Source: Nitrospira sp.
GTDB taxonomy: Bacteria; Nitrospirota; Nitrospiria; SBBL01; JAADHI01
Reading direction: 5' to 3'
Assembly (NCBI GenBank): GCA_027020665.1
Contig: JALUVJ010000093.1
Span: 5,795 to 69,794, forward strand
DNA: 64,000 nucleotides
The translations under genes were made by a program, and so were the position numbers. Below the pieces are notes generated by a model. The model had not been told where the DNA came from. It did not search any database and saw nothing but the letters and a program-made list of their open reading frames with translations. Shown one piece after another: positions 2,038-29,304 of the stretch; the first letter of the stretch is position 1, and every line of letters begins with the position of its first letter.

Positions 2038-2130
2038 CGCGCCGATTATCGCATGACTTGGGCACGGGCCGTCAAGTGTGACGTGACGCGAGGGAAGCTC
2101 AGCCTTAAAAAAGCTCTGATCCGGAATGCT

Positions 2131-3540
2131 TTAACAAACACAATTCCGGCCCATTTCTTTTGCGCGATACAGGGCGTCATCCGCACGTTTAACAATCACT
2201 TCCGCACCGATCCCGTCGGCAGGGCTTTCAGAAATGCCGAAACTGATCGTCACCGCACCGTCCGGCTGTCGATCGCCATAGGGGAAACGGTGATCCGCAA
2301 CATTTTTACGAATCACTTCCGCAAGACGTTTTGCATCCGTCTTTGTTGTATAAGGCAGGATAATGATAAATTCCTCCCCGCCATAACGGCAGACAATGTC
2401 CGTATCGCGGACGCGGCTTTGCACCAACTCGGCAATCTCCCGGAGCACGACATCGCCCATGAGATGACCGTGGGTGTCATTATATGTTTTAAAATAATCC
2501 ACATCGAAAAAAATCAGGGAAACCGGATGGCGATAGCGTTCCGCGCGCAAGAGCTCGGACTTTAAAACGCTTTCGAAATGCCGTCGGTTATAAAGCCCGG
2601 TCAGGCTGTCCCGTGTTGCTAAGGTTTTCACTTCGTGATAAAGCCGGGCATTTTCAACCGCCACGGCCACGGAAGATGCGAAGCGCGTCAGGATTTCCTT
2701 CTGCCGTTTTGTAAACGGTCTCTTTTTAAGATCAAGAATCGCTAAAACCCCATAAAACATTTGATGGCCCTGAATGGGATGAAAGAGTGCCGTGCCTTGT
2801 TTCACTTTTGAAATTAATTGCTGTTTCAATGCCCTTGAAACACGGGAAACTATTTTGGGAAAACTTAAATCCAGAGACGATGCATCCAACTTCCCCAGCC
2901 TGCAATGACTCTTGAGCAGGAGTTTTCTTCGTGATTTATCAAAAATCCAGAGCAAGGCGGGTTGAAATCCCACCAATTTTGAAACATGCATCACGGAACG
3001 TTGATAGACCTCTTCGAGATCAAGCCCCGCCAGCATTTCCTTTTCCGCAGCATACAGGGCTGAAATATCCAAAGAATACTGGATGATCTTTTTGCGGCTT
3101 TCATCCAAGGCCCTGTTTTTTTCCTGAAGATCTTCAAGCAACTTCTTTTTTTCCGCCTCCAATGAAAGTTTGTCGGAGATACGATTGATGATGGCCAGGA
3201 TCAGTTCAATATCTTCAAGCGGTTTGATCAGATAATCATAGGCCCCCAGTCGCAGGGCCTTAATGGTCGAATCAACCGAAGAGTGACTGGTAATCAGCAC
3301 CACCGTGATTGAGGCATCTTTTTTTTTAATTTCACGTAAAAGGGTGAGGCCGTCGATCCCCGGCATCCGCAGATCGGTAAAAACAATGTCGTAACGCTGC
3401 GTTTCCAATAGCGCCAAGGCCGCTTCGCCCGAATCGGCGCCGATACAAGCGTAGCCGACATCCTCCAGCAAATCGACGACCGCCGAACGAAAAGTGCTTT
3501 CGTCATCAACCACAAGTATGGAAGGTTTCCAGTCTGACAC
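2131..3540 (-). CDS. response regulator, REC - coiled coil - GAF-like - GGDEF diguanylate cyclase (active-site type)
   Basis: REC motifs are VVDDE, FTDLRMPG, ITSHS and LIKP. The GGDEF domain has LTGLYNRR, DVDYFKTYND and GGEEF (nt 2368-2382). An RDTD I-site sits 5 residues upstream. Confidence 0.9.
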   Translation of the reverse strand: MSDWKPSILVVDDESTFRSAVVDLLEDVGYACIGADSGEAALALLETQRYDIVFTDLRMPGIDGLTLLREIKKKDASITVVLITSHSSVDSTIKALRLGAYDYLIKPLEDIELILAIINRISDKLSLEAEKKKLLEDLQEKNRALDESRKKIIQYSLDISALYAAEKEMLAGLDLEEVYQRSVMHVSKLVGFQPALLWIFDKSRRKLLLKSHCRLGKLDASSLDLSFPKIVSRVSRALKQQLISKVKQGTALFHPIQGHQMFYGVLAILDLKKRPFTKRQKEILTRFASSVAVAVENARLYHEVKTLATRDSLTGLYNRRHFESVLKSELLRAERYRHPVSLIFFDVDYFKTYNDTHGHLMGDVVLREIAELVQSRVRDTDIVCRYGGEEFIIILPYTTKTDAKRLAEVIRKNVADHRFPYGDRQPDGAVTISFGISESPADGIGAEVIVKRADDALYRAKEMGRNCVC

Positions 3541-3634
3541 AGCATCAAGCCTATCACAAAGCCCCTAGGCGTCAAGACAGATTCAAGCGCACTAAGGGGA
3601 ATAACCAACTGAAATATATACGTTTATTTTAATA

Positions 3635-5098
3635 TTATGCGTTAAGGCCTTCAGCAGGTTCACGTATAGAAATACGGCTCTCCAAGACCGAAATAAGCTC
3701 CCCGACCGTATCACCATCCTTTGGGTAGGCCGCTTTTTTGAGTTGGCCTTCTCCATATTCGGCGGCAATGTGTTTGGAAACAGCCAAAGATGACATCTGC
3801 CGCTTTAAGAGACGCATCACCTTACGACTTTCCCGATGACTCGTCTCCGGCATCATCACAAATATCTTGTTCCTATCTCGCGCCGCCATATCCGTTGTAC
3901 GAATCCGGCTCAGAATCTGTTTGGCCCATTCCTGTAAAAACGCGCGAACCTCCGGTTTCTTTTCTTCCTCAGGGGGGAAATCCAAAGACAACAGCAAGAG
4001 GGTGAAGGGGTGCCGATAACGCCGCGCGCGCTGGATCTCCAGATTCAGGAGTTCCAAAAAGAAGTCAAAGCGCACAAGGCCCGTCTGCGTATCCTGCAGC
4101 GTTGATATCCCTTTCGTTGCGGGGGGTACTCCGACGACGTCGGGAATATGTGTTGGCGTTCGGGGGGTGTTCATTTCAAAAAAATGAAACATCATTGCCG
4201 TAATCAGGCAAAGATGTACAAAGGTATTTTTTTCATGCACCCTCCAGTTTTTCGGCGCACGATTCATGACCGAGAGCAAACCGTATACCTTCTCTTGATA
4301 GATTAAAGGCTGATGAACCCCGTTTTGGGGGGGCGGGGATTTAAATAATTGATTGAGCTGATTTTTATACGCGCCCTTCCGCATCCAAAGACACAAGGCC
4401 GCATCTGAGCTGCGTAGCGCATCCGAAAGCGGCATCGAAGGCATCGAAGCGGTGCTCAGTCCAATGGTCTTTTGCGCAAGCAGACTTCCTTTTTCCCGAT
4501 GATACAGCCAGATCACCCCGGCATTCCCTTTTAAAAAGAGGGAAAGCCCTTCCTCTAAACGGCCCATTAACTCAGCACGGTTTTTTGATTTTAAGAGACT
4601 TGAAGCAATCTTATAAAAATTCGCAACCGCAATGAGGTCCCGTGCCGCCCGGCTTGCCCCTTGTTCCATCTGCTGATTTTTTTGCGTCGTGCGTGCAAGT
4701 AATGCTCGGTTTTCTTTTTTAAGCTGCTGCTGCGACAAGGCCCGTGCAACAACGATTTCAACATATTCAAGTTCTTCGAAAGGTTTCAGCAAATAGTCAT
4801 ACGCCCCTAAACGGATGGCCTCCAGGGAAGATTCCAGCGAGGCATGGCTGGTCATAATAATCACTTCGGTATCCGGACTTATTTCTTTCACTTTTTTAAG
4901 CAATTCAAGCCCTGTCTGTCCCGCCATGCGAATATCGGAAATGACCAAGTCAAACTGAATCAATGTCATTTTCACCAGTGCGACTTCTACACTGGGGGAT
5001 TCAACAACATCATAATTCAATGCCGTAAAGAGTTCGTTCAAGATCCCCCGGATGGACATTTCATCATCAACCACCAGGATGCGGGGTGATTTATTCAT
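3635..5098 (-). CDS. response regulator, REC - coiled coil - GAF-like - degenerate GGDEF domain (catalytically inactive type, RxxD retained)
   Basis: REC motifs are VVDDE, ISDIRMAG, MTSHA and LLKP. The C-terminal domain aligns to the neighbouring GGDEF paralog (RYRHP shared), but GGEEF is replaced by RNKIF (nt 3860-3874). NRR is lost and DxD-FK-ND is degraded. RTTD (nt 3890-3901) is kept at the I-site spacing. Confidence 0.8.
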   Translation of the reverse strand: MNKSPRILVVDDEMSIRGILNELFTALNYDVVESPSVEVALVKMTLIQFDLVISDIRMAGQTGLELLKKVKEISPDTEVIIMTSHASLESSLEAIRLGAYDYLLKPFEELEYVEIVVARALSQQQLKKENRALLARTTQKNQQMEQGASRAARDLIAVANFYKIASSLLKSKNRAELMGRLEEGLSLFLKGNAGVIWLYHREKGSLLAQKTIGLSTASMPSMPLSDALRSSDAALCLWMRKGAYKNQLNQLFKSPPPQNGVHQPLIYQEKVYGLLSVMNRAPKNWRVHEKNTFVHLCLITAMMFHFFEMNTPRTPTHIPDVVGVPPATKGISTLQDTQTGLVRFDFFLELLNLEIQRARRYRHPFTLLLLSLDFPPEEEKKPEVRAFLQEWAKQILSRIRTTDMAARDRNKIFVMMPETSHRESRKVMRLLKRQMSSLAVSKHIAAEYGEGQLKKAAYPKDGDTVGELISVLESRISIREPAEGLNA

Positions 5099-5112
5099 CA
5101 GTCGCTTCCTCC

Positions 5113-6939
5113 TTAGTTTTCAGGTTTGTCTTCACGCGCCGCATCCATCACGGGAAATGAAAGCGTAAAGGTCGTGCCCTTGCCCGGTTCGCTTTCTAAC
5201 AGAATTTCACCGTAATGATCTTTTACAATGCCGTATGAAACCGAAAGGCCCAAACCCGTGCCTTTCCCGATCGGCTTTGTCGTGAAAAAAGGCTCAAAAA
5301 TTTTTTCCTGAATCTCAGGCGGCATGCCCGGCCCCGTATCGCGGACAGACAAGACCACCTTGTCTTCATCCTGAGCGGTTTCAATGGAAACCGTTCCGCC
5401 TTCCGGCATGGCTTGCTGTGCATTGATCATCAGGTTCATCAAGACTTGCTGAAGCTGATTGGCGTTTCCGCCAATCAGCGGGAGATGCGCGGCAATCTGT
5501 TTTTCGATCCTCACCTTGTTAATCGTCAACTGATGATCCACGATGGCCAGAGCGTCTTCAAGCACGTCATTGAGATTGATCGGCGTCTTTTCCGTTTTTT
5601 CCTGACGGGAGAATTTCATCAGGTTTTCAATAATCGTCTTACAGCGTTTGGTCTCTTTTTCGATAATCCGCAACTGTTTGGCCAATGGGCTGTCTTGCTC
5701 CACCTTTCTCAAAGCCAACTGGGCATAACCTAGAATCCCCGCCAAAGGGTTTTTAACTTCATGGGCGATCCCGGCACCCAGTTGTCCGAAGGCCGCCATT
5801 TTTTCCGATTGCACCAGGGCCGCCTGCGCCGACTTCAAATCAGTCTCACGGGCTTTCAATTCGCCCGCCATCCGGTTGAAGGAATTGGCCAGAAGACCGA
5901 TTTCATCCTTGCTTTTTGTCGTGATCCCGATATCAAAATGCCCGCCTGCGACACGGCGTGTCGCTTCCGAAAGCTGTTTAATGGGCTGTGTCATACCGCG
6001 TGACCACACAAATGCAACGAGCACTGAAAACGCCAGAACCCCCAAAGACACATTCAATAAGGTATCGGTCAAGGCCTTCGCTGCCAAATAAGCCACGGAT
6101 TTCGGGATTTGGGCCACCGCGCCAAAACCGCCGTACTCAATACGGGCATAAGCCCCCAGATAATCATCCCCGTCAATCGTATATTCCAGTGTTTCGGCAA
6201 AGGTTTGCCCGTTCATAAACGCCGCAACCACCGGAATGCCGCTCACATCCTCATGAAAAACTTTTTCGCTGCCCTGCGGTCCCGTATTTGAGCTGGAAAT
6301 AATCATGCCCGCATTGTCGATCAAAAAGGTCTCGAAAACCTTTGATTTCCCGCTTAAGCCCAAGAGTCGATCGAGCTGAATCTCCGCCACGACAAAGAAG
6401 GTTTCATCAAAATGTTCATCGTGCACCCTTCGAACCAAAGTGAAAGAGGGCAATTCCCGCATGAAGGTCGATTGCTGTAAAAAAGGGACGCCTTGTTTCA
6501 AATCCTCAAAAGGAATCGGGTGTTCGGCGCGATAGGCCGTGAGATCTTCCCGTTTCAGATCCGCCGCGCTAAATCGGACCTGATCCAGCAGGGTCACTTC
6601 CTCTTTACCTTTTGCGTTGTACAGTGAAACGGCGATAAAACCTTCAAAGTGCTCAAGCAGCTTTTTGATATAGGTTTCTTTGCCGGACTCCGGGATTTCC
6701 ACGGATAAAAGCGACTGCGCAAAAACTGCCAGGTTTTCATCGTAGTTGCGCAAAATCGTATTGGCTTCCTCCGAAAGATGCAGCGCCGTGACCGCGGTAA
6801 GATCAAAAAGGTAAGTGGTCTTGTCTTTTTGAAACAAGGTCACAATTTTAAAGGTCAGCGTGCTGACCACGGCGGTCACCACCACGAGCATCATGAAGAG
6901 CAGCTTGAGCCGAATTGAAAATTTAACCTGTGACGCCAT
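5113..6939 (-). CDS. sensor histidine kinase (TM - periplasmic Cache-like domain - TM - HAMP - HisKA - HATPase_c)
   Basis: The N-terminal TM is LLFMMLVVVTAVVSTL, followed by a roughly 260-aa extracytoplasmic segment and a second TM. HAMP is PIKQLSEATRRVAGGHFD...LANSFNRMAGEL. The H-box is AHEVKNPL (His codon 5761-5763). N/G boxes are NLMINAQQA, DTGPGM and GTGLGL. Confidence 0.9.
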   Translation of the reverse strand: MASQVKFSIRLKLLFMMLVVVTAVVSTLTFKIVTLFQKDKTTYLFDLTAVTALHLSEEANTILRNYDENLAVFAQSLLSVEIPESGKETYIKKLLEHFEGFIAVSLYNAKGKEEVTLLDQVRFSAADLKREDLTAYRAEHPIPFEDLKQGVPFLQQSTFMRELPSFTLVRRVHDEHFDETFFVVAEIQLDRLLGLSGKSKVFETFLIDNAGMIISSSNTGPQGSEKVFHEDVSGIPVVAAFMNGQTFAETLEYTIDGDDYLGAYARIEYGGFGAVAQIPKSVAYLAAKALTDTLLNVSLGVLAFSVLVAFVWSRGMTQPIKQLSEATRRVAGGHFDIGITTKSKDEIGLLANSFNRMAGELKARETDLKSAQAALVQSEKMAAFGQLGAGIAHEVKNPLAGILGYAQLALRKVEQDSPLAKQLRIIEKETKRCKTIIENLMKFSRQEKTEKTPINLNDVLEDALAIVDHQLTINKVRIEKQIAAHLPLIGGNANQLQQVLMNLMINAQQAMPEGGTVSIETAQDEDKVVLSVRDTGPGMPPEIQEKIFEPFFTTKPIGKGTGLGLSVSYGIVKDHYGEILLESEPGKGTTFTLSFPVMDAAREDKPEN

Positions 6940-6955
6940 CCCAGAAACCGCCTTT

Positions 6956-17300: not shown

Positions 17301-20300
17301 TGAGATTCAATGTGCCGCTGATGGTATTTGTTGTGCCTCCGGTGAAGCGCAACTGCGTATTCGGCGTCACCGCCGTGAAGTTGCCGGTGCTGAGGGCGTC
17401 CGAAAAAGTCACAACATTCGAGGCATTCGTGATCGTCAAATTATTAAATGTACTGCCGCCGCTGGTGATGCTTTGCGTGCCCGTGCCGTCGAAGGTCACG
17501 GTGTTGGCGCCGGACGTCAAGGTGCCCGCGTTCGTCCAATCGCCCGCGACGTCGATGTCAAAGCCTGCCGCATTCAATGTGGCGTTGGCGTCGATGTTCA
17601 GATTTCCGCTCAAACCGTTCACACCGCTCAAAGCAGCGCCGAGCGAATACGTTGTCGCCGCCGTCGGCGTCAGTCTCAAACTGCTGTAGGGCAGGGTGGC
17701 GATGTTCACGCCCGCGCCCGTGCCCGTGTATTGCACCGTCGAAGTGCCCGCCGTAAAAGTCCCGCTGTTTGAAAGAGGCGTGCCCGTGCCGTCGATCTCC
17801 AGCGTGTAGCCCGAAGCCCCCAAGTCGAGTGTGCCGGCCGTCACGGTCAGGGTTTGCACTTTCGTCGATGCGCCCAAAGTCAGGCTCGTGCCGTTCACCA
17901 CCACGTCTTCCAAATCCTGCGGGCCGCCGCCGGAGCTGTCGCTCAGGGTCGTCGTGCCGTCGAAAGTCCAGTCGGCCGTTCGACTGGTCACGTCGATGGA
18001 ACCGTTGCTTGCAATCGTGACATTGCCCGCCGTGTTGACCGTCGGATTGTTGGTGCCGATGTCGAGATCGCCGTCCGTGATCGTGAGATTGCCGTTGATG
18101 TCGAGGGCGTCGGCGATGATGACATCGTCGCTGCCGCTGCCGCCGGTATTGTTGAGCGTAAGGTGGTTGAAGGCGGCACCGCCGCTGGTGATTGTTTGGT
18201 CGGCCGTGCCGTTGAAGGTCACCGTGCCCGTGCTCGTAAACACACCGCCCGTGGCGTCCCAATTCCCCGACACGTTGACCGCAAAGGCGGCGGGGTTGAA
18301 GGTGCCGTTGATGTCCATATCCACGGCGGTCACGTTGCCGCCCGGTGTGAAGCTGTGCCCCGTCAAGACATGCAGTTCGTGGTTGCCCGAAACCGTGAGG
18401 TTGCCGCCCGAAACCGTGTATTGAATGTCGGTATCCCCGTTCGTTGCGGTGGAAAGATTCGCATTCGTGAGTGCGCCGCTGTTGTCCTGGCGCGTCACGA
18501 CATGGTTTTGATAAATGTTGAAGTTGGAAAAACTGCCGCCGTTGGAGACCGTCACCGTCGTCCCGTCTTCCGTTTCGTTGTCGATAAAGGCCAAAACCGT
18601 GTCGCCCACCGAAGGGGTCGCCGCGATGGAATACACGCCGGCGCCGTTCGTTACGGCCGTGCCGACGCTCGCGCCGTTGACCAGAAGTCGAATCACCTTC
18701 CCCGAAAGCGGCGTCGCTTCATCATCGTCGGTGTAGACCGTGCCGGTCACGCCGGTGAACCATTGGATGTTGTTGCCGGAATCCACGGAACTTGCGGGAT
18801 TCACGGGCAGTTGCGCGGCATTGGAGCCTGCGGCATCCGAATCCTGCACGTCCACAAAGTCGATGGCCTTCGTGGCGGACGCGCCCAAAACCAAGTCCCA
18901 CTGCGTGCCGGGGCTGTCGGAGACGAGGTTGATGCGGTCGTCGGCATCCAGGCCGTCCAAGGTGAGGGTGCCGTTGATCGTCTGCGTCGCCGTGTTGTCG
19001 AAGGTGAGGGTGACATCCGTCGCATCGTTCGTGCTTTCGGTTTTTGTGAAGTTGTTGAAGGTCGTGGAACCCGTCAGCGTTTGATTCGTGCCGTCGAAGA
19101 CGACGGTGCCGGAACGCGGTGTAAACGTCCCGCCGTTGCTCCAATTGCCCGCGACGTTGACCGGGTAGTTCGTGCCGGAGACGTCCAAAGTCCCCGCCGT
19201 GATCGTGAGGTTGCCGTTGACGTCGAGGGCGGCATCGAGCGTCCACGTGCCGGATCCGTTGAAGGTGAGCTTGGAATAGGTGTCGCCCGCGGCCAAGCCG
19301 GTGTAAGTGCCGCCGCCATCGTACAGCACGGTGCTGCCCGTGTTGAGGGTGGTGGTTGTGGTCGTCACCGTTTCGCCGCCTTCCAATTGCAAAGTTTCGG
19401 TCGCCCCGACGGTCAAGACATCCGGCACGGTGAGGTTGAAGCCGTTCAAATCCAGGGTGCCGCCGGACAGGGTGAGATCTTGCCCCGCCGCATCCAACCC
19501 GGTCGTAAAGTTCGCTGTTAAAACCGCCGTGCCCGACGCTTTGTTGATGGTGAAGGTGCCGTCCGGCAAGTCGCCGGTCACGTTGATATTCTGTGTGCCC
19601 GTGCCGTCGAGGGTGATCGCCGCCGTGCCGAAAATTTCAACATCGGCGGAGGTGAGATTGCCGGCCACGGTGAAGGTGCCGGTGTTGACATTCGAAGCCG
19701 AAGTAAAAGTGAGGTTGCCGTTGATGTCCATCGTGCCGGTGACGGTAATCGAAAACCCACCTTTGTCGAACTCAACATCGTTGAAAGCCATTGTGCCCGA
19801 ATTAACACTGGTGCTTTGCGTGCCCGCATCGTTGTTAAAGCTGACCGTGCTGCTTCCGGCGGAAACATTGCCCAAGGTCCGCGTCCAGTTGCGGCTGACA
19901 TGGATCGTGTCTTGAAGCGTGAGTGTGCCGCCGCCTTTGTTGATGTCCACGCTCGGCAAGCCCCCCGTGCCGCCCGCGGCACCCAAAATCTGTGCCCCGG
20001 CGCCATTGAACAACACCGTAGCGTCACCCCCGACGGCGCTGTCCGTCGTTGTGAGGTTCCCGGCCACGGCGACCGTGCCGGTGTTGAGATTGCCCAACCC
20101 CGAAATCGTGAGGTTGCCGTCGATGTCCATCGTACCCGTCACGGTCAAGCTAGAGCTGCCTTTGTCAAAAATGACGTTGTTAAAGGCCATGCCCGGCGCC
20201 GAAATGTTGCCGGAAATCGCTGAGGCATCGTTGTTGAAACTGACGGTGCTCGTCCCCGCCGACACCGTTCCTGCGGTATGCGTCCAGTCCTTGTGCACGC

Positions 20301-23300
20301 TGATCGTATCTTGCAGCGTGAGGGTGCCGCCGCCTTTGTTGATGACGATCGACGGTACGCCCACCGTGCCGCCGCCTCCACCCGCGTCCAGGGTTTGCGC
20401 CCCGCCGCCGTCGAGGGTGATATTCCCGTTGCCGCCGACGGTGCCGTCGGTCCCCGTGACATTCCCTGCCACGGTGAGCGTGCCATCGATCGACCCCACG
20501 CTGTTGATCGTGAGGTTGCCGTTCACATCCATCGTGCCGCTGATGTTGAAATTAAATCCGGCTTTCGTAAGCTGGACATGGTTAAATTGCTCAGAGCCGG
20601 TGCTGATATTCGAAGTGATCCCCGTCCCGTCAAAGTGCACCGTCCCGCTGTTGTGGACGAAACTGCCGCCGGAGATCGTGATGTCATCCACAATCGTCAT
20701 CGTGCCGGAGGTACTCGTAAAGCCGCCGCCGCCGACAATCAAATCACCGTTGATGTCGATAGCGACAGCGCCGCCGTTGAAGGTCCCGAGGCTTTCCATG
20801 TTGGTGGTCGTGACGTTGCCGCCCGGCGTGAAGCTGTGGCCGGAGGGAATGTAGAGTTCATCGCTCCCCGTCACACTCAGGTTCCCGCCGGAGACGGTGT
20901 AGCGGATATCGGTATCTCCATTCGTCGCCGTGCCCATGTCGGCGTTCGTGAGCGCACCCCCGTTGTCGTGGCGGACGACCACATGGTTTTGATAAATATT
21001 CAGGCCGGAGATCGCGCCGCCGTTGGAAACACTGACCGTCGTACCGAAGTTGCCGCCGTTGCTGTCCAGGTAGACCAAGAGCGTTTGACCCGTGTTGGGC
21101 GCGGCGTTGATCGTGTAGTTGCCGGAGCCGTCGGTCACCGCCGTACCCACGCTGCTGCCGTTGACCAAGAGACGCACGGTTTCGCCCACCATGGCGGTCG
21201 CTTCGTCATCGTTCGTGTACACGGTTCCGGAGATGGCGACGGTGAATCCCCAGTTCAGATTGTTCCCGCCGTCCGTGCTGCTGCTGTGCACAATCGTCAA
21301 GCCGCCGGAGGCGTCGCTGTCCGTGGGGCGCACGTTGTCGATGGCGAAGGTGCCGTTGGCCGTGAGGCCCCATTGGTTGCCGGGGCTGTCGGAAACAAGC
21401 AAAATGCGGTCGTCGGCATCGAGTCCATCCAAAGTCAACAAGCCGTTGATCGTCTGCGTCGCCGTGTTGTCGAAGGTGAGGGTGACGTCCGTCGCATCGT
21501 TCGTGCTTTCGGTTTTTGAAAAGTTGTTGAAGGTCGTGGAACCCGTCAGCGTTTGATTCGTGCCGTCGAAGACGACGGTGCCCGAACGCGGTGTAAACGT
21601 CCCGCCGTTGCTCCAATTGCCCGCGACGTTGACTGGGTAGTTCGTGCCGGAGACGTCCAAAGTCCCCGCCGTGATCGTGAGGTTGCCGTTGACGTCGAGG
21701 GCGGCATCGAGCGTCCACGTGCCGGAGCCGTTGAAGGTGAGCTTGGAATAGGCGTCGCCCGCGGCCAGGCCGGTGTAAGTGCCGCCGCCATCGTACAGCA
21801 CGGTGCTGCCCGTGTTGAGGGTGGTGGTTGTGGTTGTGACGGTTTCGCCGCCTTCCAATTGCAAAGTTTCGGTCGCCCCGACGGTCAAGACATCCGGCAC
21901 GGTGAGGTTGAAGCCGTTCAAATCCAGGGTGCCGCCGGACAGGGTGAGGTCTTGCCCCGCCGCATCCAACCCGGTCGTAAAGTTCGCTGTTAAAACCGCC
22001 GTGCCCGATGCTTTGTTGATGGTGAAGGTGCCGTCCGGCAGGTCGCCGGTCACGTTGATGTTTTGCGTGCCCGTGCCGTCGAGGGTGATCGCCGCCGTGC
22101 CGAAAATTTCAACATCGGCGGAGGTGAGATTGCCGGCCACGGTGAAGGTGCCGGTGTTGACCGCCTGGGCCGAGATGAAGGTGAGATTCCCGTCGATATT
22201 CATCGTACCGGTGACGGTGATGTCGAAAGCCCCTTTATCAAACTCCACATGATTAAAGGCCATCGCGCCCGAATTGATGCTGCTGGCCTGAGTTTCATTC
22301 TGTTGAAAACTCACCGTGCTGCTGCCAGCGTTCACCGTGCCCGCGGTGTAGGTCCAGTCGCGCTCGATCACGATGGTGTCCTGAAGGGTCACGGTGTCGC
22401 TTTTATTGATCGTCAGCGAGGGCAGACCCGCCGTACCGCCTCCCCCGCCCGCACCCACGACCTGCGCACCGCTGCCGTCCAGCACGATGACGCTGGTGCC
22501 GCCGACCACTGCATCCGTGCTGGTCACATTCCCCGCCACGTTGATGTTGCCGCCGAGGATTCTGTCCACACTGTTGATGACGAGGTTGCCGTTGACATCC
22601 AAGGCCCCCGTAATCGTCACCGGCGTCGCCCCTTTTGAGAAGGTGAGGTGATTCAACACGGTCGCACCAATATCCATCACCGGGGAGCCGATGCCCAGTC
22701 CGTCAATGTGGATTGTACCGTTGTTGTGTATAAAGCTACCGCCGGAAATGGTGAAGTCATCCACCACGCTCATCGTACCGCTTGTGGCAGTAAAGGTCCC
22801 GCCGCCGAGGATAAAATAATCGCTGATGTCGATCGTGATTGCGCCACCGTTGAAAGTGCCGCGGCTTTCCAGACTCGGTGTCGTGACATTGCCGCCCGGC
22901 GTGTAGCTGTGGCCGGCGGGCAGAAAGAGTTCGTGGCTGCCGGTCACGGTGAGGTTGTTGCTGCCGTCCACGGAATACTGAATATCCGCGTCCCCGTTGG
23001 TCGCGGTGCTCAGGTTGGCGTTTGAAAGCACGCCGCCGTTGTCGTGGCGGACGACGACATGGTTTTGATAAATATTTAAGGCCGAAAGTGTGCCGCCGTT
23101 TGAAACGGTGACCGTTGTGCCGTCTTCCGTTTCGTTGTCGAGATAGACGAGCAGGGTGTTCCCGGTATTCGGCGCGGCGTTGATCGTATAATTCCCGGAG
23201 CCGTCCGTCGTGGCGGTCAGGCCGCTGTCCGTGCCGTTCACAAGCAAGCGGACGAGTTTGCCGGTCAAGGGGGTCAACTCATCGTCGTCCGTGTAGACTG

Positions 23301-24906
23301 TGCCGGAAATCGTGGTGGGTGCAAAAATCCAGCGGGGGCTGGCCTCCGCATCGTCGTTTCCGCCGTTGTTTACGGCGTCGTTGGCCGTAATGTCTCCATC
23401 CGTCGCATCGGCGTCCTGCACATTCACAAATTGCACATCTTTCGTCACGGCGGCGGGCACACTGAGATTCCATCGTGTCGGACTACTGGAAGATCTCAGG
23501 CTCAGCAATTGCCCCGAGGCCCCTTTCAAGGTCAGCGAACCGCCGGTCGCGATCGTCTGCGTGCCGCTTGCGGGAAAGGTAAGCGTATCGGTGCTCGTCA
23601 CGGTTTTGTTGAGGTTGTAAAAGGTCGTCGATCCGCTGAGGGTCTGGCCCGTGCCGTCCAGATTTACCGTGGAGGTGCCTGCGTTGATCGTGGCGCCCCC
23701 GCTCGTCCAATCGCTCGACAGATTCACGGTCGCAGAACCCATGTTGACCGTGCCGCCCGTGAGATTGATGTTGTCATCCGCATCCAGGGTGTTCACGAGG
23801 TTGAGCGTGCCGGCGGATACCAACAGCCCGTCGCCGGTATTGGCGCCAATTTTATTTGCTCGGAAACTGCCGGACATGCCCAGGGTCAGTGTCGCGCTGG
23901 AATTGATGACCCGGATGCCGCCCCCGCCGTTCGGAATCGAACCCGTTCCATCGGCGCGTGTGCCGATGTAGTTGCCTTCGGCGGTGACGCTGCTTGAAAA
24001 TTGTGAGTCGAGGCCGACGGTCGCGTTTCCGGAGATCACATTGCCTTCGCCGACGGCCGAGCCGCCTAAGATGTTGTTGGTTGCATTAAAAAACGTAATG
24101 CCCTGATTGCCGTTGCCTAAGGCCGCGGTCCCGGCCGCGTTGGTGCCGATATAGTTCCCGATGATGGTCGCGGCGGTATCGATCAGCGGTCCGCCGCCCC
24201 ATACCCCGATATGAATACCCAAGTCCGTATTGCCCGAAACGACATTGCCCAGGCCCGCGCTGCTGCCGCCAACGGTGGCGCCGCTCGCGTGAATCCAGAT
24301 GCCGACCACGCTATTGCCCAAACCGCCCGTGCTGTTTTGGTCGGTCCCGACGTAGTTTCCCGTAATCGTCACGCCGCCGCCCGTGTAGTCGATGCCGGTC
24401 CCGTTCGATACAAGCACGTTGCCCTCGCCGGAAGGCCCGCTACCCGTGGTATTGTTGCCGCCGATTGTGATGCCGGTGCCGCTCGTGATCTCGATGGCGT
24501 CGTCCGTGAAATTCTGAATGCGAAGCCCCTTGACGACATTGTTGTTCGACGTGATGCTGATGCCGTCGGTCACCGTGCCGCCGCCGTCCAAAATGACCCC
24601 GGCGTTGGAGGCGTCGATCGTAACCGATCCCGCACTCATCGCGGGCAGGGCGCCGGATACGGTGATGGTCGCCGGGGAAGCTGTAGGAAAGGTCGTGGTA
24701 TTGAAAACGATGGTGTCGGTCGCGGCGGCTGCGGTCATGGCCTCGCGTAAGGAACAATCCGCATCGCAGGTGCCGTCGTTGGTATCTGCTGTTTTTGTGA
24801 CGGTCAGCGTCGCGGCCATTGCTTTTGAAGCAAACAAGGAAACCGTCAGCAATATGAAAATTAAAAAAAGCGGTGCTTTGATAATTTTGAAAACCTTTTT
24901 CAACAT
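8317..24906 (-). CDS. giant (5,529 aa) secreted repetitive surface/outer-membrane protein: CSLREA/beta-helix N-terminus, four beta-helix super-repeats, 3x157-aa repeats, Ig-like, DUF11-like, SdrD-B-like, OmpA-like, C-terminal barrel-like region
   Basis: A single ORF of 16,590 nt with no stop. It has a Sec signal peptide and Gly/Thr/Asn/Val-rich beta-helix-type repeats. Recognisable motif blocks are listed as sub-features. The sequence ends ...RGWFIRVQGKY with a terminal aromatic residue, typical of OMP barrels. Confidence 0.9.
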   Translation of the reverse strand: MLKKVFKIIKAPLFLIFILLTVSLFASKAMAATLTVTKTADTNDGTCDADCSLREAMTAAAATDTIVFNTTTFPTASPATITVSGALPAMSAGSVTIDASNAGVILDGGGTVTDGISITSNNNVVKGLRIQNFTDDAIEITSGTGITIGGNNTTGSGPSGEGNVLVSNGTGIDYTGGGVTITGNYVGTDQNSTGGLGNSVVGIWIHASGATVGGSSAGLGNVVSGNTDLGIHIGVWGGGPLIDTAATIIGNYIGTNAAGTAALGNGNQGITFFNATNNILGGSAVGEGNVISGNATVGLDSQFSSSVTAEGNYIGTRADGTGSIPNGGGGIRVINSSATLTLGMSGSFRANKIGANTGDGLLVSAGTLNLVNTLDADDNINLTGGTVNMGSATVNLSSDWTSGGATINAGTSTVNLDGTGQTLSGSTTFYNLNKTVTSTDTLTFPASGTQTIATGGSLTLKGASGQLLSLRSSSSPTRWNLSVPAAVTKDVQFVNVQDADATDGDITANDAVNNGGNDDAEASPRWIFAPTTISGTVYTDDDELTPLTGKLVRLLVNGTDSGLTATTDGSGNYTINAAPNTGNTLLVYLDNETEDGTTVTVSNGGTLSALNIYQNHVVVRHDNGGVLSNANLSTATNGDADIQYSVDGSNNLTVTGSHELFLPAGHSYTPGGNVTTPSLESRGTFNGGAITIDISDYFILGGGTFTATSGTMSVVDDFTISGGSFIHNNGTIHIDGLGIGSPVMDIGATVLNHLTFSKGATPVTITGALDVNGNLVINSVDRILGGNINVAGNVTSTDAVVGGTSVIVLDGSGAQVVGAGGGGGTAGLPSLTINKSDTVTLQDTIVIERDWTYTAGTVNAGSSTVSFQQNETQASSINSGAMAFNHVEFDKGAFDITVTGTMNIDGNLTFISAQAVNTGTFTVAGNLTSADVEIFGTAAITLDGTGTQNINVTGDLPDGTFTINKASGTAVLTANFTTGLDAAGQDLTLSGGTLDLNGFNLTVPDVLTVGATETLQLEGGETVTTTTTTLNTGSTVLYDGGGTYTGLAAGDAYSKLTFNGSGTWTLDAALDVNGNLTITAGTLDVSGTNYPVNVAGNWSNGGTFTPRSGTVVFDGTNQTLTGSTTFNNFSKTESTNDATDVTLTFDNTATQTINGLLTLDGLDADDRILLVSDSPGNQWGLTANGTFAIDNVRPTDSDASGGLTIVHSSSTDGGNNLNWGFTVAISGTVYTNDDEATAMVGETVRLLVNGSSVGTAVTDGSGNYTINAAPNTGQTLLVYLDSNGGNFGTTVSVSNGGAISGLNIYQNHVVVRHDNGGALTNADMGTATNGDTDIRYTVSGGNLSVTGSDELYIPSGHSFTPGGNVTTTNMESLGTFNGGAVAIDINGDLIVGGGGFTSTSGTMTIVDDITISGGSFVHNSGTVHFDGTGITSNISTGSEQFNHVQLTKAGFNFNISGTMDVNGNLTINSVGSIDGTLTVAGNVTGTDGTVGGNGNITLDGGGAQTLDAGGGGGTVGVPSIVINKGGGTLTLQDTISVHKDWTHTAGTVSAGTSTVSFNNDASAISGNISAPGMAFNNVIFDKGSSSLTVTGTMDIDGNLTISGLGNLNTGTVAVAGNLTTTDSAVGGDATVLFNGAGAQILGAAGGTGGLPSVDINKGGGTLTLQDTIHVSRNWTRTLGNVSAGSSTVSFNNDAGTQSTSVNSGTMAFNDVEFDKGGFSITVTGTMDINGNLTFTSASNVNTGTFTVAGNLTSADVEIFGTAAITLDGTGTQNINVTGDLPDGTFTINKASGTAVLTANFTTGLDAAGQDLTLSGGTLDLNGFNLTVPDVLTVGATETLQLEGGETVTTTTTTLNTGSTVLYDGGGTYTGLAAGDTYSKLTFNGSGTWTLDAALDVNGNLTITAGTLDVSGTNYPVNVAGNWSNGGTFTPRSGTVVFDGTNQTLTGSTTFNNFTKTESTNDATDVTLTFDNTATQTINGTLTLDGLDADDRINLVSDSPGTQWDLVLGASATKAIDFVDVQDSDAAGSNAAQLPVNPASSVDSGNNIQWFTGVTGTVYTDDDEATPLSGKVIRLLVNGASVGTAVTNGAGVYSIAATPSVGDTVLAFIDNETEDGTTVTVSNGGSFSNFNIYQNHVVTRQDNSGALTNANLSTATNGDTDIQYTVSGGNLTVSGNHELHVLTGHSFTPGGNVTAVDMDINGTFNPAAFAVNVSGNWDATGGVFTSTGTVTFNGTADQTITSGGAAFNHLTLNNTGGSGSDDVIIADALDINGNLTITDGDLDIGTNNPTVNTAGNVTIASNGSIDVTSRTADWTFDGTTTLSDSSGGGPQDLEDVVVNGTSLTLGASTKVQTLTVTAGTLDLGASGYTLEIDGTGTPLSNSGTFTAGTSTVQYTGTGAGVNIATLPYSSLRLTPTAATTYSLGAALSGVNGLSGNLNIDANATLNAAGFDIDVAGDWTNAGTLTSGANTVTFDGTGTQSITSGGSTFNNLTITNASNVVTFSDALSTGNFTAVTPNTQLRFTGGTTNTISGTLNLNGQAAGTEVVLRSTNASQYVLDVTGGAQTVSFVDVQYSDAGTNNITANLSTNSGNNDDAAASPHWIFSVQITGTVYTDEGTTPIADGAIVRLLVNGVSVGTDTTTTGAYAIPSGALSAGDAILVYIDNHASDGVAVTVSDGTALAGFDIYAGHVIARHDNSRSLSNANMDTALGAFSDTDLLYSVASGNLTVSGAGTELYIPLNHSFTPGGNVTTPAMENLGTFVGGSGTIDVNGALQLTAGAFTATSGTLSIGTGFTISGGTFTHNAGTVAFDTGSATINIGSAILNDLSLAIGTGTLTVTGTVDVDGDFAVTSLAGIDGGTIAVAGNATSTDTDIVGTATILLDGGGNQTLGVLSSTGDFPNIAINKTGGTLTLEGTIETADWTYTAGTVNAGTSTVRFDAFYPHTISSGAMRFNDVELSNNGNAVTIVGTMDINGNLTLSDAGNISGGTMTVAGNLTSADAAVDGTTAVTLDGTGTQNINVTGDLPDGTFTINKTSGTVILLANFATGLDGAGQDLTISQGTLDLNGFNLTVPDVFTVNAAGTLQLEGGETVTTGTTTLNSGSTVLYDGGGTYAGLAAGNSYANLTFNNAGGTWAQNAALDVNGNLTITAGTLNSAGNAITLAGNWSNSGTYASGANTVTFDGGNQSLAGSTTFNHFSKIDSANDATDLTLTFDNTATQTINGTFTINGLDADDRINLVSDSPGNPWSLVLGAGAVKSVDFVDVQDSDAAGSDAALIPVNPTNAIDSGNNIQWFGTAVAATSAAVEISPNAVAVGSTGNAFTYDLLPTIGGSDTGIDQIILSVPAGYGNLVLNGVSVGGTAQIPDCVGLGAGEYCASISGQVITVTLGTKVTTTLSNIRLTLTADAPTTVGGADFTSTFDDTSTGVAAQAAAAGNADGDAGDNNSITVQVVGRAVTSVLAEVSPNAVPINSTGNSFAYDMLPTINAGDTGINQIALTVPAGHSNLSVTGVSVGGTAQTAGSGCPTPAAGEYCSTVSGQVITLTLGTAVTTSLTNIRITFTADAPSTVGSGNVTATVDDAATITAAQAITAGNADGDAADADSIAVATGDLAATSALSEISPNTVVMSTTTRAFILDILPAINAADTGIDQLELTAPSAYANLNVTGVSVAGANQTASITCPTPGAGEYCAGVSAQVMTVTLGSKLLTSSSNVQIRFTADTPGVSDSASFLAKFNDTATAAVAPQSAAEGNADGDSEDANSLSVTVQSIDTAQSLVSAAPSLIEIDRDGDGNPYSTITITPKDPAGLDLGSGLNVVISVVEAAAPSGKPAGVKEAAGDPFGSMTAVVDNGDGTYSAQLSSAISGIAAVNATVNGVLLQSAQTVTFTAGEVLKISKTANKKSAVIGDVITYEVAIQNTTTQDVSSVTLNDKIPPGFKYLQGSSLVNGQPAADPSGNQTRAFNLGTIAAWVDQNGNGLADTGDAGNITLSYQLVIGSGVKPGAHVNLAQAVDFAAISNQSRVKVRVDYDPIFDLSTVIGKVFFDKNQNGYQDRGEAGIAGVRVALDNGTYVVTDDAGRYHFPGVKPGQRLLKIHTATLPPGTTVTTEEARIAEVSRGLLTKVNFGVVYDIETEHIGRPGKEGLAVSPQLEIEPTQITGHLQAMQVLVNGDDVKLPVNQAHLGVSEIKEVVEIIGENLIQPILFSIVPEMPDRVKSWRLEIKDAEGGIFRLLQGQGAPPEEIRWDGKDAAQKLMEGGAVYSYQFKVDYKDGSAAASTRRLFGVNKTSAVSLNLLGSAFAVGSAEINEKTEKVLDELAETLKKYPNEPITIEGHTDNTGNDDFNLQLSKARAETAMHYLVEKKAIDKKRFSLKWFGEGKPIASNGVEEGRAVNRRVEIVGTIKEVKTAKIFNHPRSEAVMRINGLPVETETGDRFSTKLRQDVETLILEMAGSGGEVLKTTLIFPKVEILAPAGQEILVFGEPNARYLALPLPKGGEKTAGLPVASYRLQGKTEAENQVWVDGKAVKVGMEGRFETDILLKIGENLFTIVAANPQRVSRMMTLKIHLSDKDEQGRVMMAIKPIPQISVLLPPKGKVLSHTQLPLRGMTDPGNAVWVNETKIAVAENGTFSTRAELQSGKNTLVIKVVDAEGYSSRIEREVTVNEAPFFLMALADGEFGRISTSGYLEGAGADQRKDYYAKGRLAYYLKGKILGKYLITSAFDTGKNEFERMFQNLNQAETDRFFTNIDPDKFYPVYGDESTIVYDAQSRGKFYLAIEGEDLNVLVGNYKTDLNDTELAAFNRTLYGARAEYRSLSKTRYGAHDTKVIVFGAEVRQAHVQNTFRATGGSLYYLSEKNVIEGSEQVRIEVRDQNTGLVLAKIDQVRDADYSFKYEEGRILFRRPISGVVSNDLLLAQASLQGHPVFVLVDFEYEAQNFDKRAVGGRVRQQVGDHLAIGGTAIEDAAEAGDYALKAADAELRLGRDTTLVGEYAQSRGKNSATLISEDGGISFTPLAATVADSGSAYKAAVRSNLSEWFGAKARLLGNAYYKRLSPGFFSNGTLLEQGTLKYGGGLKAVLNKQDTLRLRYDFQEVIANANAVSANQVGAKQVLMKELEYGHRRGPFLFTAGFQDKRIDEGGGVSKVEQQLAGAVNWQVHERFSALLKHQQLIRGADRYRSTLGLKAGLADWLDGVAEGSFSNAADTALLGLSARIDDRSTLYINETFKKKEGEEATWASVAGGDRMLTPRLKLYGEYGEERGPINQTRSLWGLDQRFGDDKKWKINLNYERSYLKGLTRNTTRDAAALSLRYLRPDGSRSAHRVELRLEKGTDKKIHRLTTHQGELKILSGLTLFGKFNFSDTKNRTQNRLEARFTEAGGGVAYRPIAFDRVNFISKYTFLMDQKPDASGPMLKTASHVTSVEIIYDISRYFQWVEKYAVKLKKERQSPRPDLKSRTDLWINRLNFHVTKRWDIAGEYRILKQFQANDQLEGYAVEVNRALAKHFRFGVGYNFSRFTDNEFSDNNYDARGWFIRVQGKY
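8320..10940 (-). other. C-terminal ~870-aa region with outer-membrane beta-barrel character
   Basis: Starting at APFFLMALADGEFGR there are long runs of alternating hydrophobic/polar short strands rich in Y/G/R/D/N. There are no repeats or Cys. It ends with FIRVQGKY. This is an inference from composition only. Confidence 0.5.
11728..12040 (-). other. OmpA-like peptidoglycan-binding domain embedded in the giant protein
   Basis: LDELAETLKKYPNEPITIEGHTDNTGNDDFNLQLSKARAETAMHYLVEKKAIDKKRFSLKWFGEGKPIASN....GRAVNRRVEIV is a canonical OmpA_C motif set (TD..G....N..LS..RA, NRRVE). Confidence 0.85.
12637..12815 (-). other. SdrD B-like / Cna-B-type domain
   Basis: GKVFFDKNQNGYQDRGEAGIAGVRVALDNGTYVVTDDAGRYHFPGVKPG is the classic G.V..D.N.NG..D.GE.G..GV.V.L......T.TD..G.Y.F signature. 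Confidence 0.7.
12878..13246 (-). other. DUF11-like (conserved repeat) domain
   Basis: LKISKTANKKSAVIGDVITYEVAIQNTTTQDVSSVTLNDKIPPGFKYL...ITLSYQLVIG matches the DUF11 pattern as I remember it. Confidence 0.6.
13615..15027 (-). repeat. three tandem coding repeats of about 157 aa with a conserved Cys pair
   Basis: Units start near nt 15027, 14555 and 14085 (..E[IV]SPN.V.......F..D.LP.I...DTGI[DN]Q..L..P....NL...GVSV.G). Each contains C....AGEYC...S.QV.TVTLG. Confidence 0.85.
18970..19689. repeat. 720-bp near-identical intragenic repeat, copy A
   Basis: It aligns without gaps to 21442-22161 at an offset of exactly 2472 nt. I counted 17 mismatches by eye (about 97.6% identity). The flanks diverge sharply. 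Confidence 0.9.
21442..22161. repeat. 720-bp near-identical intragenic repeat, copy B
   Basis: Partner of 18970-19689. A third, much more diverged copy lies at about 15240-15960. Confidence 0.9.
23317..24813 (-). other. N-terminal CSLREA motif plus parallel beta-helix (PbH1-like) region
   Basis: DGTCDADCSLREAMTAAAA carries CSLREA at nt 24739-24756, the signature that names the TIGRFAMs CSLREA N-terminal domain (from memory). It is followed by repeated GNxIGxxxxGxGNxxxGI turns typical of right-handed beta-helices. Confidence 0.6.
24814..24906 (-). other. Sec signal peptide of the giant protein
   Basis: MLKKVFKIIKAPLFLIFILLTVSLFASKAMA|ATLTV has a basic n-region, a hydrophobic core and an AxA cleavage motif. 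Confidence 0.8.
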
Positions 24907-25242: not shown

Positions 25243-25281
25243 TTGACGCAAGTGTGACAAAACTTGTCACACTTGCGTCAA
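25243..25281 (-). terminator. 17-bp perfect stem-loop downstream of msrB (probable terminator; also sits in the upstream region of the giant gene)
   Basis: TTGACGCAAGTGTGACA (25243-25259), a 5-nt loop, then TGTCACACTTGCGTCAA (25265-25281). On the minus strand a TTTTT run follows about 10 nt after the stem. Confidence 0.55.
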
Positions 25282-29275: not shown

Positions 29276-29304
29276 GCTTTGCTCCTGAGTATTGATTGTA
29301 TAAT

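Follow-up and report, generated by a model that had tools for sequence, protein, structure and literature searches.

A conserved gene cluster placing a FecR-like membrane protein, a histidine kinase and REC-GGDEF regulators beside a large predicted outer-membrane protein: possible trans-envelope signalling to c-di-GMP

In a 64-kb stretch of contig JALUVJ010000093.1 from Nitrospira sp. (assembly GCA_027020665.1; hereafter the window, to whose positions all coordinates refer) a block of five minus-strand genes at positions 2131-24906 encodes a giant protein, a FecR-like membrane protein, a sensor histidine kinase and two response regulators, RR1 and RR2, which combine a receiver (REC) with a GGDEF domain. 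This block represents, in one lineage, an uncharacterised gene cluster that is widespread among uncultured bacteria, and we give an about even chance to the reading that the cluster relays the state of an outer-membrane protein to the second messenger c-di-GMP. Observed directly are the order of the genes and how far it is conserved, their domains, the signals of membrane topology and the residues of catalytic sites and I-sites. The invariant core of the cluster consists of a Sec-exported outer-membrane protein with an OmpA-like domain, immunoglobulin (Ig)-like periplasmic modules and a very large predicted C-terminal barrel, of a bitopic protein of the inner membrane that carries in the periplasm a FecR beta-sandwich and, after it, Fn3-like and Ig-like domains, and of a Cache-like/HAMP histidine kinase, for which a REC-GGDEF regulator is the usual output. 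This composition suggests trans-envelope signalling that is independent of a sigma factor.

The evidence that carries this reading is the conservation of the gene order. Genomes were scanned with 12 closer FecR-like sequences, the 26-sequence alignment A1 being too diverse for this purpose, and the scan gave 30 loci, all in metagenome-assembled genomes (MAGs), labelled Nitrospirota, Thermodesulfovibrionia, Desulfobacterales/Deltaproteobacteria, Geobacteraceae, Acidiferrobacterales, Tenderia, Chromatiaceae and Eisenbacteria. Synteny was counted by tblastn with each window protein or domain in the loci with sequence available (individual loci are given below by L numbers). In each of 31 loci out of 31 the FecR-like gene is directly followed by the kinase gene; it is directly preceded by an OmpA/barrel gene in 22 of the 24 loci that have at least 2.3 kb of upstream sequence, and a REC-GGDEF gene is found within about 1.2 kb of the kinase gene in 19 of 24. 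Reverse look-ups that started from homologues of the barrel, namely in Woeseiaceae, on a 2-Mb contig, in a Gammaproteobacterium and in two shorter variants, led in five of five cases to a gene for about 440-450 amino acids (aa) and then a HAMP kinase gene, directly downstream. The stop codon of the barrel gene overlaps the start codon of the FecR-like gene in the window as well as in L002, L037 and L038, and short spacers are found elsewhere. Since the order recurs across phyla, it is more than chance; a lack of synteny in relatives had been named beforehand in an earlier note on this DNA as grounds for giving up the proposed relay, and the order proved to be conserved. This conservation makes the finding much firmer, and the most striking feature of the block in the window, the size of the giant protein, turns out to be a local fusion, as detailed below.

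The FecR-like gene (6956-8317, minus strand) encodes 453 aa, which by sequence and an AlphaFold2 (AF2) model comprise a tail of about 20 residues, a transmembrane helix, a disordered linker (aa 52-94), the FecR domain (aa ~99-260), an Fn3-like domain (aa 277-368) and an Ig-like domain (aa 373-452; in the model 375-452). The model, calculated from an alignment of 26 homologues, has a mean predicted local distance difference test score (pLDDT) of 81 and shows one long helix at aa 9-49 and a beta-sandwich at aa 99-260. This sandwich (7538-8023, minus strand) includes the match to Pfam family PF04773 at aa 132-240, which covers profile positions 2-96 of 97 with E=0.033 and 15.1 bits against a cut-off of 24. 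In the alignment of 26 homologues, PF04773 is matched at E<=0.1 by 21 sequences, with 2e-7 as the lowest value, and the motifs RDAVQT…ENSLVII are conserved in the family alignment. The FecR-like assignment of the earlier note can therefore be upheld at the level of the family, through these 21 matches and the AF2 sandwich, while the window protein on its own stays below the threshold. A Foldseek search of the PDB with the whole model returned mostly generic Fn3 and Ig folds, and 4m0n, a putative anti-sigma factor of the FecR type, appeared only at rank 41.

About 20 residues rich in lysine and arginine precede the transmembrane helix and the tail is short in all 26 aligned homologues, indicating from the sequence pattern a single-pass protein with the N-terminus inside and the C-terminus outside. 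Because only these 20 or so residues stand before the helix, there is no room for an anti-sigma domain, as the earlier note had pointed out. Its statement that an extracytoplasmic function (ECF) sigma factor is missing was borne out as well: the Pfam tables of the neighbours in the window and of nine related neighbourhoods contain no Sigma70_r2 or Sigma70_r4 match, and tblastn with Escherichia coli RpoE detected none, either in the window, where the best match has E=1.7, or across 38 related loci. Homologues of the FecR-like protein number 42 in a collection clustered at 90%, and a separate Woeseiaceae branch of its family has more than 209 members, all annotated as hypothetical and most of them without a Pfam match. 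A profile search of 1.84 billion representatives gave 48,380 matches at E<=0.001, a number inflated by Fn3 and Ig repeats in giant proteins; countable as members of the family are only the approximately 90 full-length relatives (about 420-460 aa) matched in a single stretch among the top 150 representatives at 50% clustering.

The partner encoded upstream is in the window the giant open reading frame (ORF; 8317-24906, minus strand), whose 5,529 aa run, as read from the sequence, from a Sec signal peptide (…SKAMA|A) to an aromatic C-terminus (…RVQGKY). Pfam and NCBIfam place in it a CSLREA N-terminus, Invasin_D3, DUF11, SdrD_B and OmpA domains and two Ig domains of the Glucodextran_B type, in addition to a long repetitive Gly/Thr-rich region; an Ig-like stalk stands between the repeats and the OmpA domain. 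By the same databases the earlier domain assignments for all five genes hold, with the FecR domain of the window protein below threshold. The OmpA-like peptidoglycan-binding domain at aa 4292-4387 (11746-12033, minus strand; PF00691, E=1.6e-21) also matches the NCBIfam models YiaD, Pal and YfiB, and the profile of alignment A3 matches solved structures of the OmpA family. To the YfiB model it reaches E=1e-19 and 70.8 bits, and because this score is below the 128-bit cut-off the domain is OmpA-like but not a YfiB equivalog; a lipobox is lacking. Between the OmpA domain and the barrel follow the two Glucodextran_B-like Ig domains, one of them at aa 4577-4656 (10939-11178, minus strand; PF09136, E=1.9e-11, in two stretches). 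This region and the C-terminal domain of the FecR-like protein are homologues, with cross-matches of 27-35% identity in many loci.

The C-terminal part of the giant, at aa ~4690-5529 (8320-10839, minus strand), is predicted to form an outer-membrane beta-barrel. The AF2 model of the last 1,029 aa, based on a 34-sequence alignment, has a mean pLDDT of 78 and shows two Ig-like domains, a stretch of low confidence, a beta-rich region and then about 34 or more consecutive long strands (predicted count; model residues 414-1028, pLDDT ~80-90). With Foldseek only generic large outer-membrane barrels were found (LptD, Deinococcus SlpA, TonB-dependent transporters, FimD, SprA), at a TM-score of at most 0.25, so that the resemblance to TonB-dependent transporters is generic only. 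For the C-terminal ~830 aa there is no NCBIfam match and nothing credible in Pfam even at E<=10, and sequence and profile searches of the PDB gave nothing for the barrel itself, their matches being confined to the OmpA tail and the Ig domain of a glucodextranase. TonB_dep_Rec, Plug and STN were not matched anywhere in the giant in Pfam at E<=10. Homologues of the barrel region exceed 712 at 90% clustering, are typically 1,785-1,799 aa long and are annotated as 'OmpA family protein'; the end of the giant, …GWFIRVQGKY, fits their consensus GWFxRxQGxY. The most conserved motif of this family, DPDxxYPVYGD, is located at aa 4741-4751 (10654-10686, minus strand), is invariant in 34 sequences (alignment A3, columns D241 to D251) and lies directly before the barrel within the only long stretch of low confidence in the AF2 model (219-263); it is a candidate plug, latch or partner-binding element.

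The sensor kinase (5113-6939, minus strand; 608 aa) consists of a first transmembrane helix, a Cache-like periplasmic domain of about 255 aa, a second transmembrane helix and HAMP, HisKA and HATPase_c domains; to dCache_1 there is a weak match of 21.5 bits (cut-off 45). No other component of the cluster is as well conserved as the kinase, which shows 41-80% identity over its full length, including the periplasmic domain, across phyla. The periplasmic domain taken alone shows 24-76% identity across phyla, a degree of sequence conservation consistent with a sensor specific to this cluster.

Of the two regulators, RR2 (2131-3540, minus strand; 469 aa, GTG start) has a REC-GAF-GGDEF architecture (PF00990, E=9e-52) and contains RYGGEEF, the metal-binding DxD…ND region FFDVDYFKTYND (pattern DVDYFKxYND) and the I-site RDTD, all conserved in orthologues. 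With GGEEF, metal site and RxxD all present at the level of residues, RR2 looks like an active diguanylate cyclase, in line with the earlier note; it scores 237 bits against the NCBIfam PleD model (cut-off 474), and the YfiN model hits only its GGDEF part, with 125 bits (cut-off 325). RR1 (3635-5098, minus strand; 487 aa) has a REC domain, a GAF-like middle region and a GGDEF domain (E=1e-7) that is degenerate, as had been claimed: the A-site reads RD-RNKIF and the metal site is lost, but the RxxD I-site is retained (RTTD), and the same is found in five of five orthologues. Both proteins keep the DD, D and K residues of the receiver and are full-length paralogues with 24% identity over 443 aligned positions. 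GGEEF and RxxD are present in all RR2-type and single regulators except that of L023, in which A-site and metal site are degenerate too. The output pair of the earlier note is a local feature: RR1 and RR2, with their GAF-like insert, occur together only in the Nitrospirota sub-clade of the window and in L012, and elsewhere in the family there are one or two plain REC-GGDEF genes. By these sequences the ancestral output is a single REC-GGDEF protein and the pair a duplication within Nitrospirota.

All five ORFs were located where the earlier note had placed them, and the junctions between them are those described: the TAA of the giant and the ATG of the FecR-like gene have one base in common (TAATG; ttaATGacc), and the spacers to the kinase, RR1 and RR2 genes are exactly 16, 14 and 94 nt. 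A consensus scan for promoters and terminators over positions 1900-8600, compared with shuffled sequences, revealed no terminator-like or strong promoter-like site between the genes on the minus strand; its whole yield was a single promoter-like match of 9/12, inside RR1, and a weak hairpin, for either kind of site fewer than expected from the shuffles. The block is thus operon-like, with short junctions and without strong internal promoters or terminators, as proposed.

How does the giant relate to the partner that is conserved elsewhere? In the closest relatives, L006 (67% identity at the FecR-like protein), L007 and L002 (both 56%), four genes stand where the window has the giant alone. One encodes a beta-helix protein, two encode small proteins of 204-258 aa with signal peptides, and the last encodes an OmpA/barrel protein of 1,915-1,982 aa. 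The conserved core of the giant, aa 3609-5529 (8320-14082, minus strand), which contains Invasin_D3 (aa 3767-3885), DUF11 (aa 3888-3964) and SdrD_B (aa 4035-4103) domains according to Pfam, is the equivalent of the ~1,900-aa OmpA/barrel proteins of the relatives and is 73% identical over 1,921 aa to that of L006. The N-terminal part, aa 1-3292 (15031-24906, minus strand), with the CSLREA N-terminus at aa 35-60 (TIGR04214, E=1.4e-7) and a repetitive beta-helix-like region, is homologous to the separate upstream gene, with 61% identity to an 839-aa ORF of L007 and 58% to a 707-aa ORF of L006. At the junction, aa ~3304-3735 (13702-14997, minus strand), the first module of the OmpA/barrel protein is present in three tandem copies, where the relatives have one: residues 61-190 of the L006 protein (L006_omp1982) match aa 3304-3422 (55%), aa 3450-3576 (67%) and aa 3609 onward (73%). 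The 5,529-aa giant thus appears from these comparisons to be a lineage-specific fusion of the beta-helix protein with the OmpA/barrel protein, and the earlier view that a giant surface protein is the partner in the system has to be replaced: the conserved partner is an OmpA/barrel protein of about 1,200-2,000 aa.

The giant ORF could also be a chimera, produced when a metagenomic contig rich in repeats was assembled from a locus that in truth has separate genes like those of the relatives; we regard this explanation as improbable. It would fit the four separate genes at this place in L006, L007 and L002, the source of the DNA, which is a short-read metagenome contig, and the near-identical internal repeats of the N-terminal part, which reach 92% identity over 300 nt (18897 versus 21369); such long repeats are an assembly risk with short reads and at the same time a sign of recent module duplication. 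The GC content of the fused N-terminal part (14000-24000) is ~0.60 compared to ~0.50 in the rest of the window. However, the ORF is uninterrupted for 16.6 kb, the two extra module copies at the junction have diverged (55% and 67%) and look like an evolutionary duplication rather than a collapsed repeat, and homologues of the small DUF11-like genes of the relatives are found nowhere in the 64-kb window. Neither outcome touches the part with the FecR-like, kinase and regulator genes or its link to the barrel.

In other phyla the cluster extends further upstream, with the gene order beta-helix/LamG/NosD-like protein, two to four paralogous proteins of ~200 aa, OmpA/barrel protein, FecR-like protein, kinase and one REC-GGDEF protein of ~325 aa. 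All five genes of the block as first delineated are real, but relatives have more genes upstream. The ~200-aa proteins have signal peptides, weak DUF11 similarity and the motif LALVKxARDxxGxxL…IYFxLYVxNxT, and are possible fibre or pilin-like subunits; their genes lie between the beta-helix and OmpA/barrel genes in L002 (2382-4002), L003 (1973-3948), L006 (2461-4056), L007 (2725-4147), L036 (7593-9034) and L038 (1927-3291). In L039 the stalk is split into separate DUF11/SdrD_B/beta-helix genes of 2,338+ and 1,524 aa. Some loci differ in their surroundings: L030 (106-13991) has a gene for a 2,277-aa protein without Pfam match and two extra, divergently oriented REC-GGDEF genes, L014 (4440-15956) lies amid other two-component genes (REC-kinase hybrids, a sigma-54 activator, REC-GAF), and in L040 (9018-10367) a second kinase with a CHASE8 sensor directly follows the HAMP kinase and replaces the REC-GGDEF gene.

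Several known systems have single features in common with this cluster. In FecA/FecR/FecI an outer-membrane protein signals via periplasmic FecR, which has a cytoplasmic anti-sigma domain of ~80 aa, to an ECF sigma factor. The likeness consists in an outer-membrane barrel gene beside the gene for an inner-membrane protein that crosses the membrane once and has a FecR domain in the periplasm, and in the idea of a trans-envelope relay, but here there is no ECF sigma factor, no anti-sigma domain and no TonB-dependent transporter with STN or Plug, and the output would be two-component c-di-GMP signalling instead of sigma-driven transcription. In the Rcs system RcsF, residing in outer-membrane proteins, acts through IgaA on the RcsC/D/B phosphorelay; an outer-membrane-associated sensor and an accessory inner-membrane protein that controls a histidine-kinase phosphorelay are thus found there too, though no component is homologous and the output is another one. 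PleD and WspR are REC-GGDEF regulators, and PopA and PelD are c-di-GMP receptors with degenerate GGDEF domains. RR2 and the single regulators of the relatives resemble the former in being REC-GGDEF proteins with GGEEF and RxxD, and RR1, by its residues, resembles PopA as a receiver with a seemingly dead GGDEF domain that keeps the I-site; unlike these, RR1 and RR2 have an extra GAF-like middle domain and score far under the equivalog cut-offs. c-di-GMP controls giant adhesins in the Lap and Cdr systems, but LapD-like GGDEF-EAL, LapG, LapE and RTX adhesin domains are lacking in the block and in related neighbourhoods, and the giant has a Sec signal peptide and a predicted C-terminal barrel and not a type I secretion signal.

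Closer to the cluster in its output is YfiBNR (TpbB) of Pseudomonas aeruginosa, in which an outer-membrane peptidoglycan-associated protein is linked by a periplasmic partner to c-di-GMP synthesis (PMC2837407, PMC3375315, PMC4655355, PMC4887326). Both would connect the state of the envelope to c-di-GMP and both have an OmpA/Pal-like peptidoglycan-binding outer-membrane component. However, YfiB is a small lipoprotein, in contrast to the 1,800-5,500-aa barrel proteins here, YfiR is a soluble periplasmic repressor without FecR domain in place of a membrane-anchored FecR/Fn3/Ig protein, and YfiN unites periplasmic sensor, HAMP and GGDEF in one protein where the cluster has a HAMP kinase and a separate soluble REC-GGDEF protein. 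FecR domains outside of sigma-factor signalling are found in the COG4254 operons for a LysM-FecR protein and a CHASE2 kinase, which include Burkholderia 'BiofilmReg' and the P. aeruginosa PA4035 neighbourhood (PMC5192318), and in clusters of FecR-domain proteins with CHASE2 adenylate cyclases in Campylobacterota (PMC9239204); the evidence in these two studies, too, is mainly genomic. There, as here, the gene for a sigma-independent FecR-domain envelope protein lies directly beside that of a membrane sensor transducer with short spacers, the module includes peptidoglycan binding, and there is a link to biofilm. The sensor is CHASE2 there and Cache-like/HAMP here, peptidoglycan is bound by LysM on the FecR protein there and by OmpA on the barrel protein here, and the output is an OmpR/CreB-type DNA-binding regulator or cyclic AMP there and REC-GGDEF here; a giant barrel is not part of those operons, and in Pfam neither the block proteins nor the FecR-like homologues match LysM or CHASE2. 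The cluster is therefore distinct from the Fec-type, YfiBNR, Lap and LysM-FecR/CHASE2 systems. The earlier statement that no system with this gene set has been described stands for the whole set, on which no paper was found in the literature, while for parts of it there are the precedents of PMC5192318, PMC9239204 and YfiBNR. All domain types and the idea of a path from the envelope to c-di-GMP are known; the gene set is apparently undescribed and its outer-membrane component is without a family model.

How could the state of the outer-membrane protein reach the cytoplasm? A relay across the envelope is plausible because of the analogy with FecA/FecR, YfiBNR and the LysM-FecR/CHASE2 kinase operons. 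It could be imagined that the FecR-like protein spans the periplasm and couples the state of the outer-membrane protein, that is its occupancy, its load or its attachment to peptidoglycan or to a surface structure that it carries, to the kinase, in a manner resembling FecR reading FecA or YfiR linking YfiB to YfiN. The kinase would then phosphorylate the REC domain of the diguanylate cyclase, RR2 in the window, and thereby raise c-di-GMP. RR1, as a duplicated dead paralogue with intact receiver and I-site, might either compete for phosphate as a sink or bind c-di-GMP and act as an effector, and a sigma factor would have no part in the scheme. What we infer in it are all contacts between the proteins, the stimulus and the direction in which the signal runs. 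The Glucodextran_B-type Ig domains that the outer-membrane and FecR-like proteins have in common, and that cross-match, count in its favour.

A number of observations weigh against a relay of this kind. The FecR score of the window protein itself is under the Pfam cut-off, and the kinase, which itself has a periplasmic domain of ~255 aa, could respond to a ligand without the other proteins. The REC-GGDEF gene is not beside the kinase gene in 5 of 24 loci (listed are L003-5, L014, L018, L022 and L034), and L014 and L030 carry the FecR-like and kinase genes without an adjacent barrel gene. The outer-membrane protein has neither an STN-type signalling domain nor features of TonB-dependent transporters, which makes the analogy to FecA a loose one, and its N-terminal part may be either periplasmic or surface-exposed. 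Finally, all homologues are from metagenomes or MAGs and annotated as hypothetical, and no cultured host of the cluster is among the named matches, which are all MAGs or 'hypothetical protein' entries.

In the main rival explanation the kinase senses a cue of its own, such as a small molecule or envelope stress, by its Cache-like domain and sets c-di-GMP, whereas the FecR-like protein is no relay but a partner of the barrel in structure, assembly or gating; it might, for instance, be an adaptor in the periplasm through which the beta-helix and DUF11-like proteins are exported or anchored. Clustering of the genes would then reflect control of the structure by the regulator and not sensing of the structure. 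This explanation is possible, if clearly less probable than the relay, and it accommodates the complete sensor domain of the kinase, the translational coupling of the FecR-like and barrel genes, as for stoichiometric structural partners, the very large size predicted for the barrel, and the upstream beta-helix/LamG protein and two to four secreted DUF11-like proteins of the relatives, which look like a locus for the assembly of a surface structure. It accounts less well for the tie of the FecR-like gene to the kinase gene, which at 31 of 31 is tighter than that to the barrel gene (22 of 24) and persists in L014 and L030; this favours a signalling role without being decisive. Moreover, FecR domains are known from signalling contexts (PMC5192318, PMC9239204). 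Information could also flow from the inside out, similar to LapD, if c-di-GMP made by RR2 and read by RR1 altered conformation, retention or gating of the outer-membrane protein. The retained I-site and lost catalytic residues of RR1 would suit such a role, and c-di-GMP control of giant adhesins is established for Lap and Cdr. Yet RR1 is soluble, without membrane or periplasmic domain, and restricted to a Nitrospirota sub-clade, the FecR-like protein offers only ~20 cytoplasmic residues to receive a signal, and the Pfam matches of block and related neighbourhoods include neither a protease like LapG nor a protein like LapD nor genes for type I secretion, so that we consider this flow quite unlikely. 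Least probable by far is a classical FecA/FecR/FecI system with the ECF sigma factor encoded elsewhere: a FecR domain and an adjacent outer-membrane barrel gene are present, but the short tail cannot hold an anti-sigma domain, no sigma gene is found in the 64-kb window or in 38 related loci, the barrel is without TonB-dependent-transporter, Plug or STN match and invariably a kinase gene is adjacent instead. Membership in the classical Fec systems is for practical purposes refuted by the short tail and the lack of sigma factor and of STN and Plug domains.

The relay and a surface-structure locus may also be combined in an envelope machine not recognised before, which would be more than a sensor, although we hold this to be rather unlikely: a peptidoglycan-tethered barrel of ~34-40 strands, which would compare in size with the largest known single-chain barrels if the model is correct, would serve to export or to anchor both a beta-helix/LamG adhesin and a fibre made of small DUF11-like subunits, and the circuit of FecR-like protein, kinase and cyclase would report the occupancy or load of this machine as c-di-GMP. 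If so, the in-frame fusion in the window would be a Rosetta-stone sign of contact between beta-helix protein and barrel.

On the 5' side of the giant gene a spacer of 448 nt is followed by msrB/msrA, which are unrelated to the block. This spacer contains a perfect inverted repeat at 25243-25281, with 17-nt arms by pattern search and 18 pairs in the fold (TTGACGCAAGTGTGACA(ag ttt)…TGTCACACTTGCGTCAA), ~70 nt past the msrB stop codon and ~340 nt ahead of the ATG of the giant gene. As RNA it forms a hairpin of -33.5 kcal/mol (z = -6.7) that is found in none of 40 related loci. Since no T-run follows it on the minus strand, the repeat could be an operator as well as a terminator. Feedback of c-di-GMP onto the giant gene by a riboswitch was considered and rejected: Rfam at gathering thresholds gave no match of any kind in the whole window, and the 448-nt leader matched only microRNA hairpin models, by chance, on a palindrome. 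On the other side a gene for a class-I S-adenosylmethionine (SAM) methyltransferase (1201-2037, minus strand) begins 93 nt past RR2, with no terminator-like site in between and a bidirectional terminator-like hairpin (1179-1196) directly past its stop codon. Such a gene also follows RR2 in L002 (56% identical), and it may be the sixth gene of the transcription unit in the clade of the window. About 3.7 kb upstream of the giant gene a 250-aa protein with a C-terminal LuxR/GerE helix-turn-helix and an N-terminal region without family match is encoded (28580-29332, minus strand); its gene is not kept beside the cluster in relatives.

What would a relay through this cluster mean? If it exists, FecR domains would be general trans-envelope couplers that feed two-component systems and c-di-GMP and not ECF sigma factors alone, and there would be a route from the state of a surface or outer-membrane structure to the second messenger that governs the choice between sessile and motile life. 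To our knowledge, the regulation of surface attachment is not understood in Woeseiaceae, Nitrospirota and Desulfobacterota, lineages that dominate sediments and groundwater and in which the cluster is common. Its barrel family comprises more than 700 members at 90% clustering, for which no counterpart was found in Pfam, NCBIfam or among solved structures, and the conserved triad of barrel protein, FecR-like protein and kinase together with the natural fusion in the window provides specific handles for experiments and for multimer modelling.

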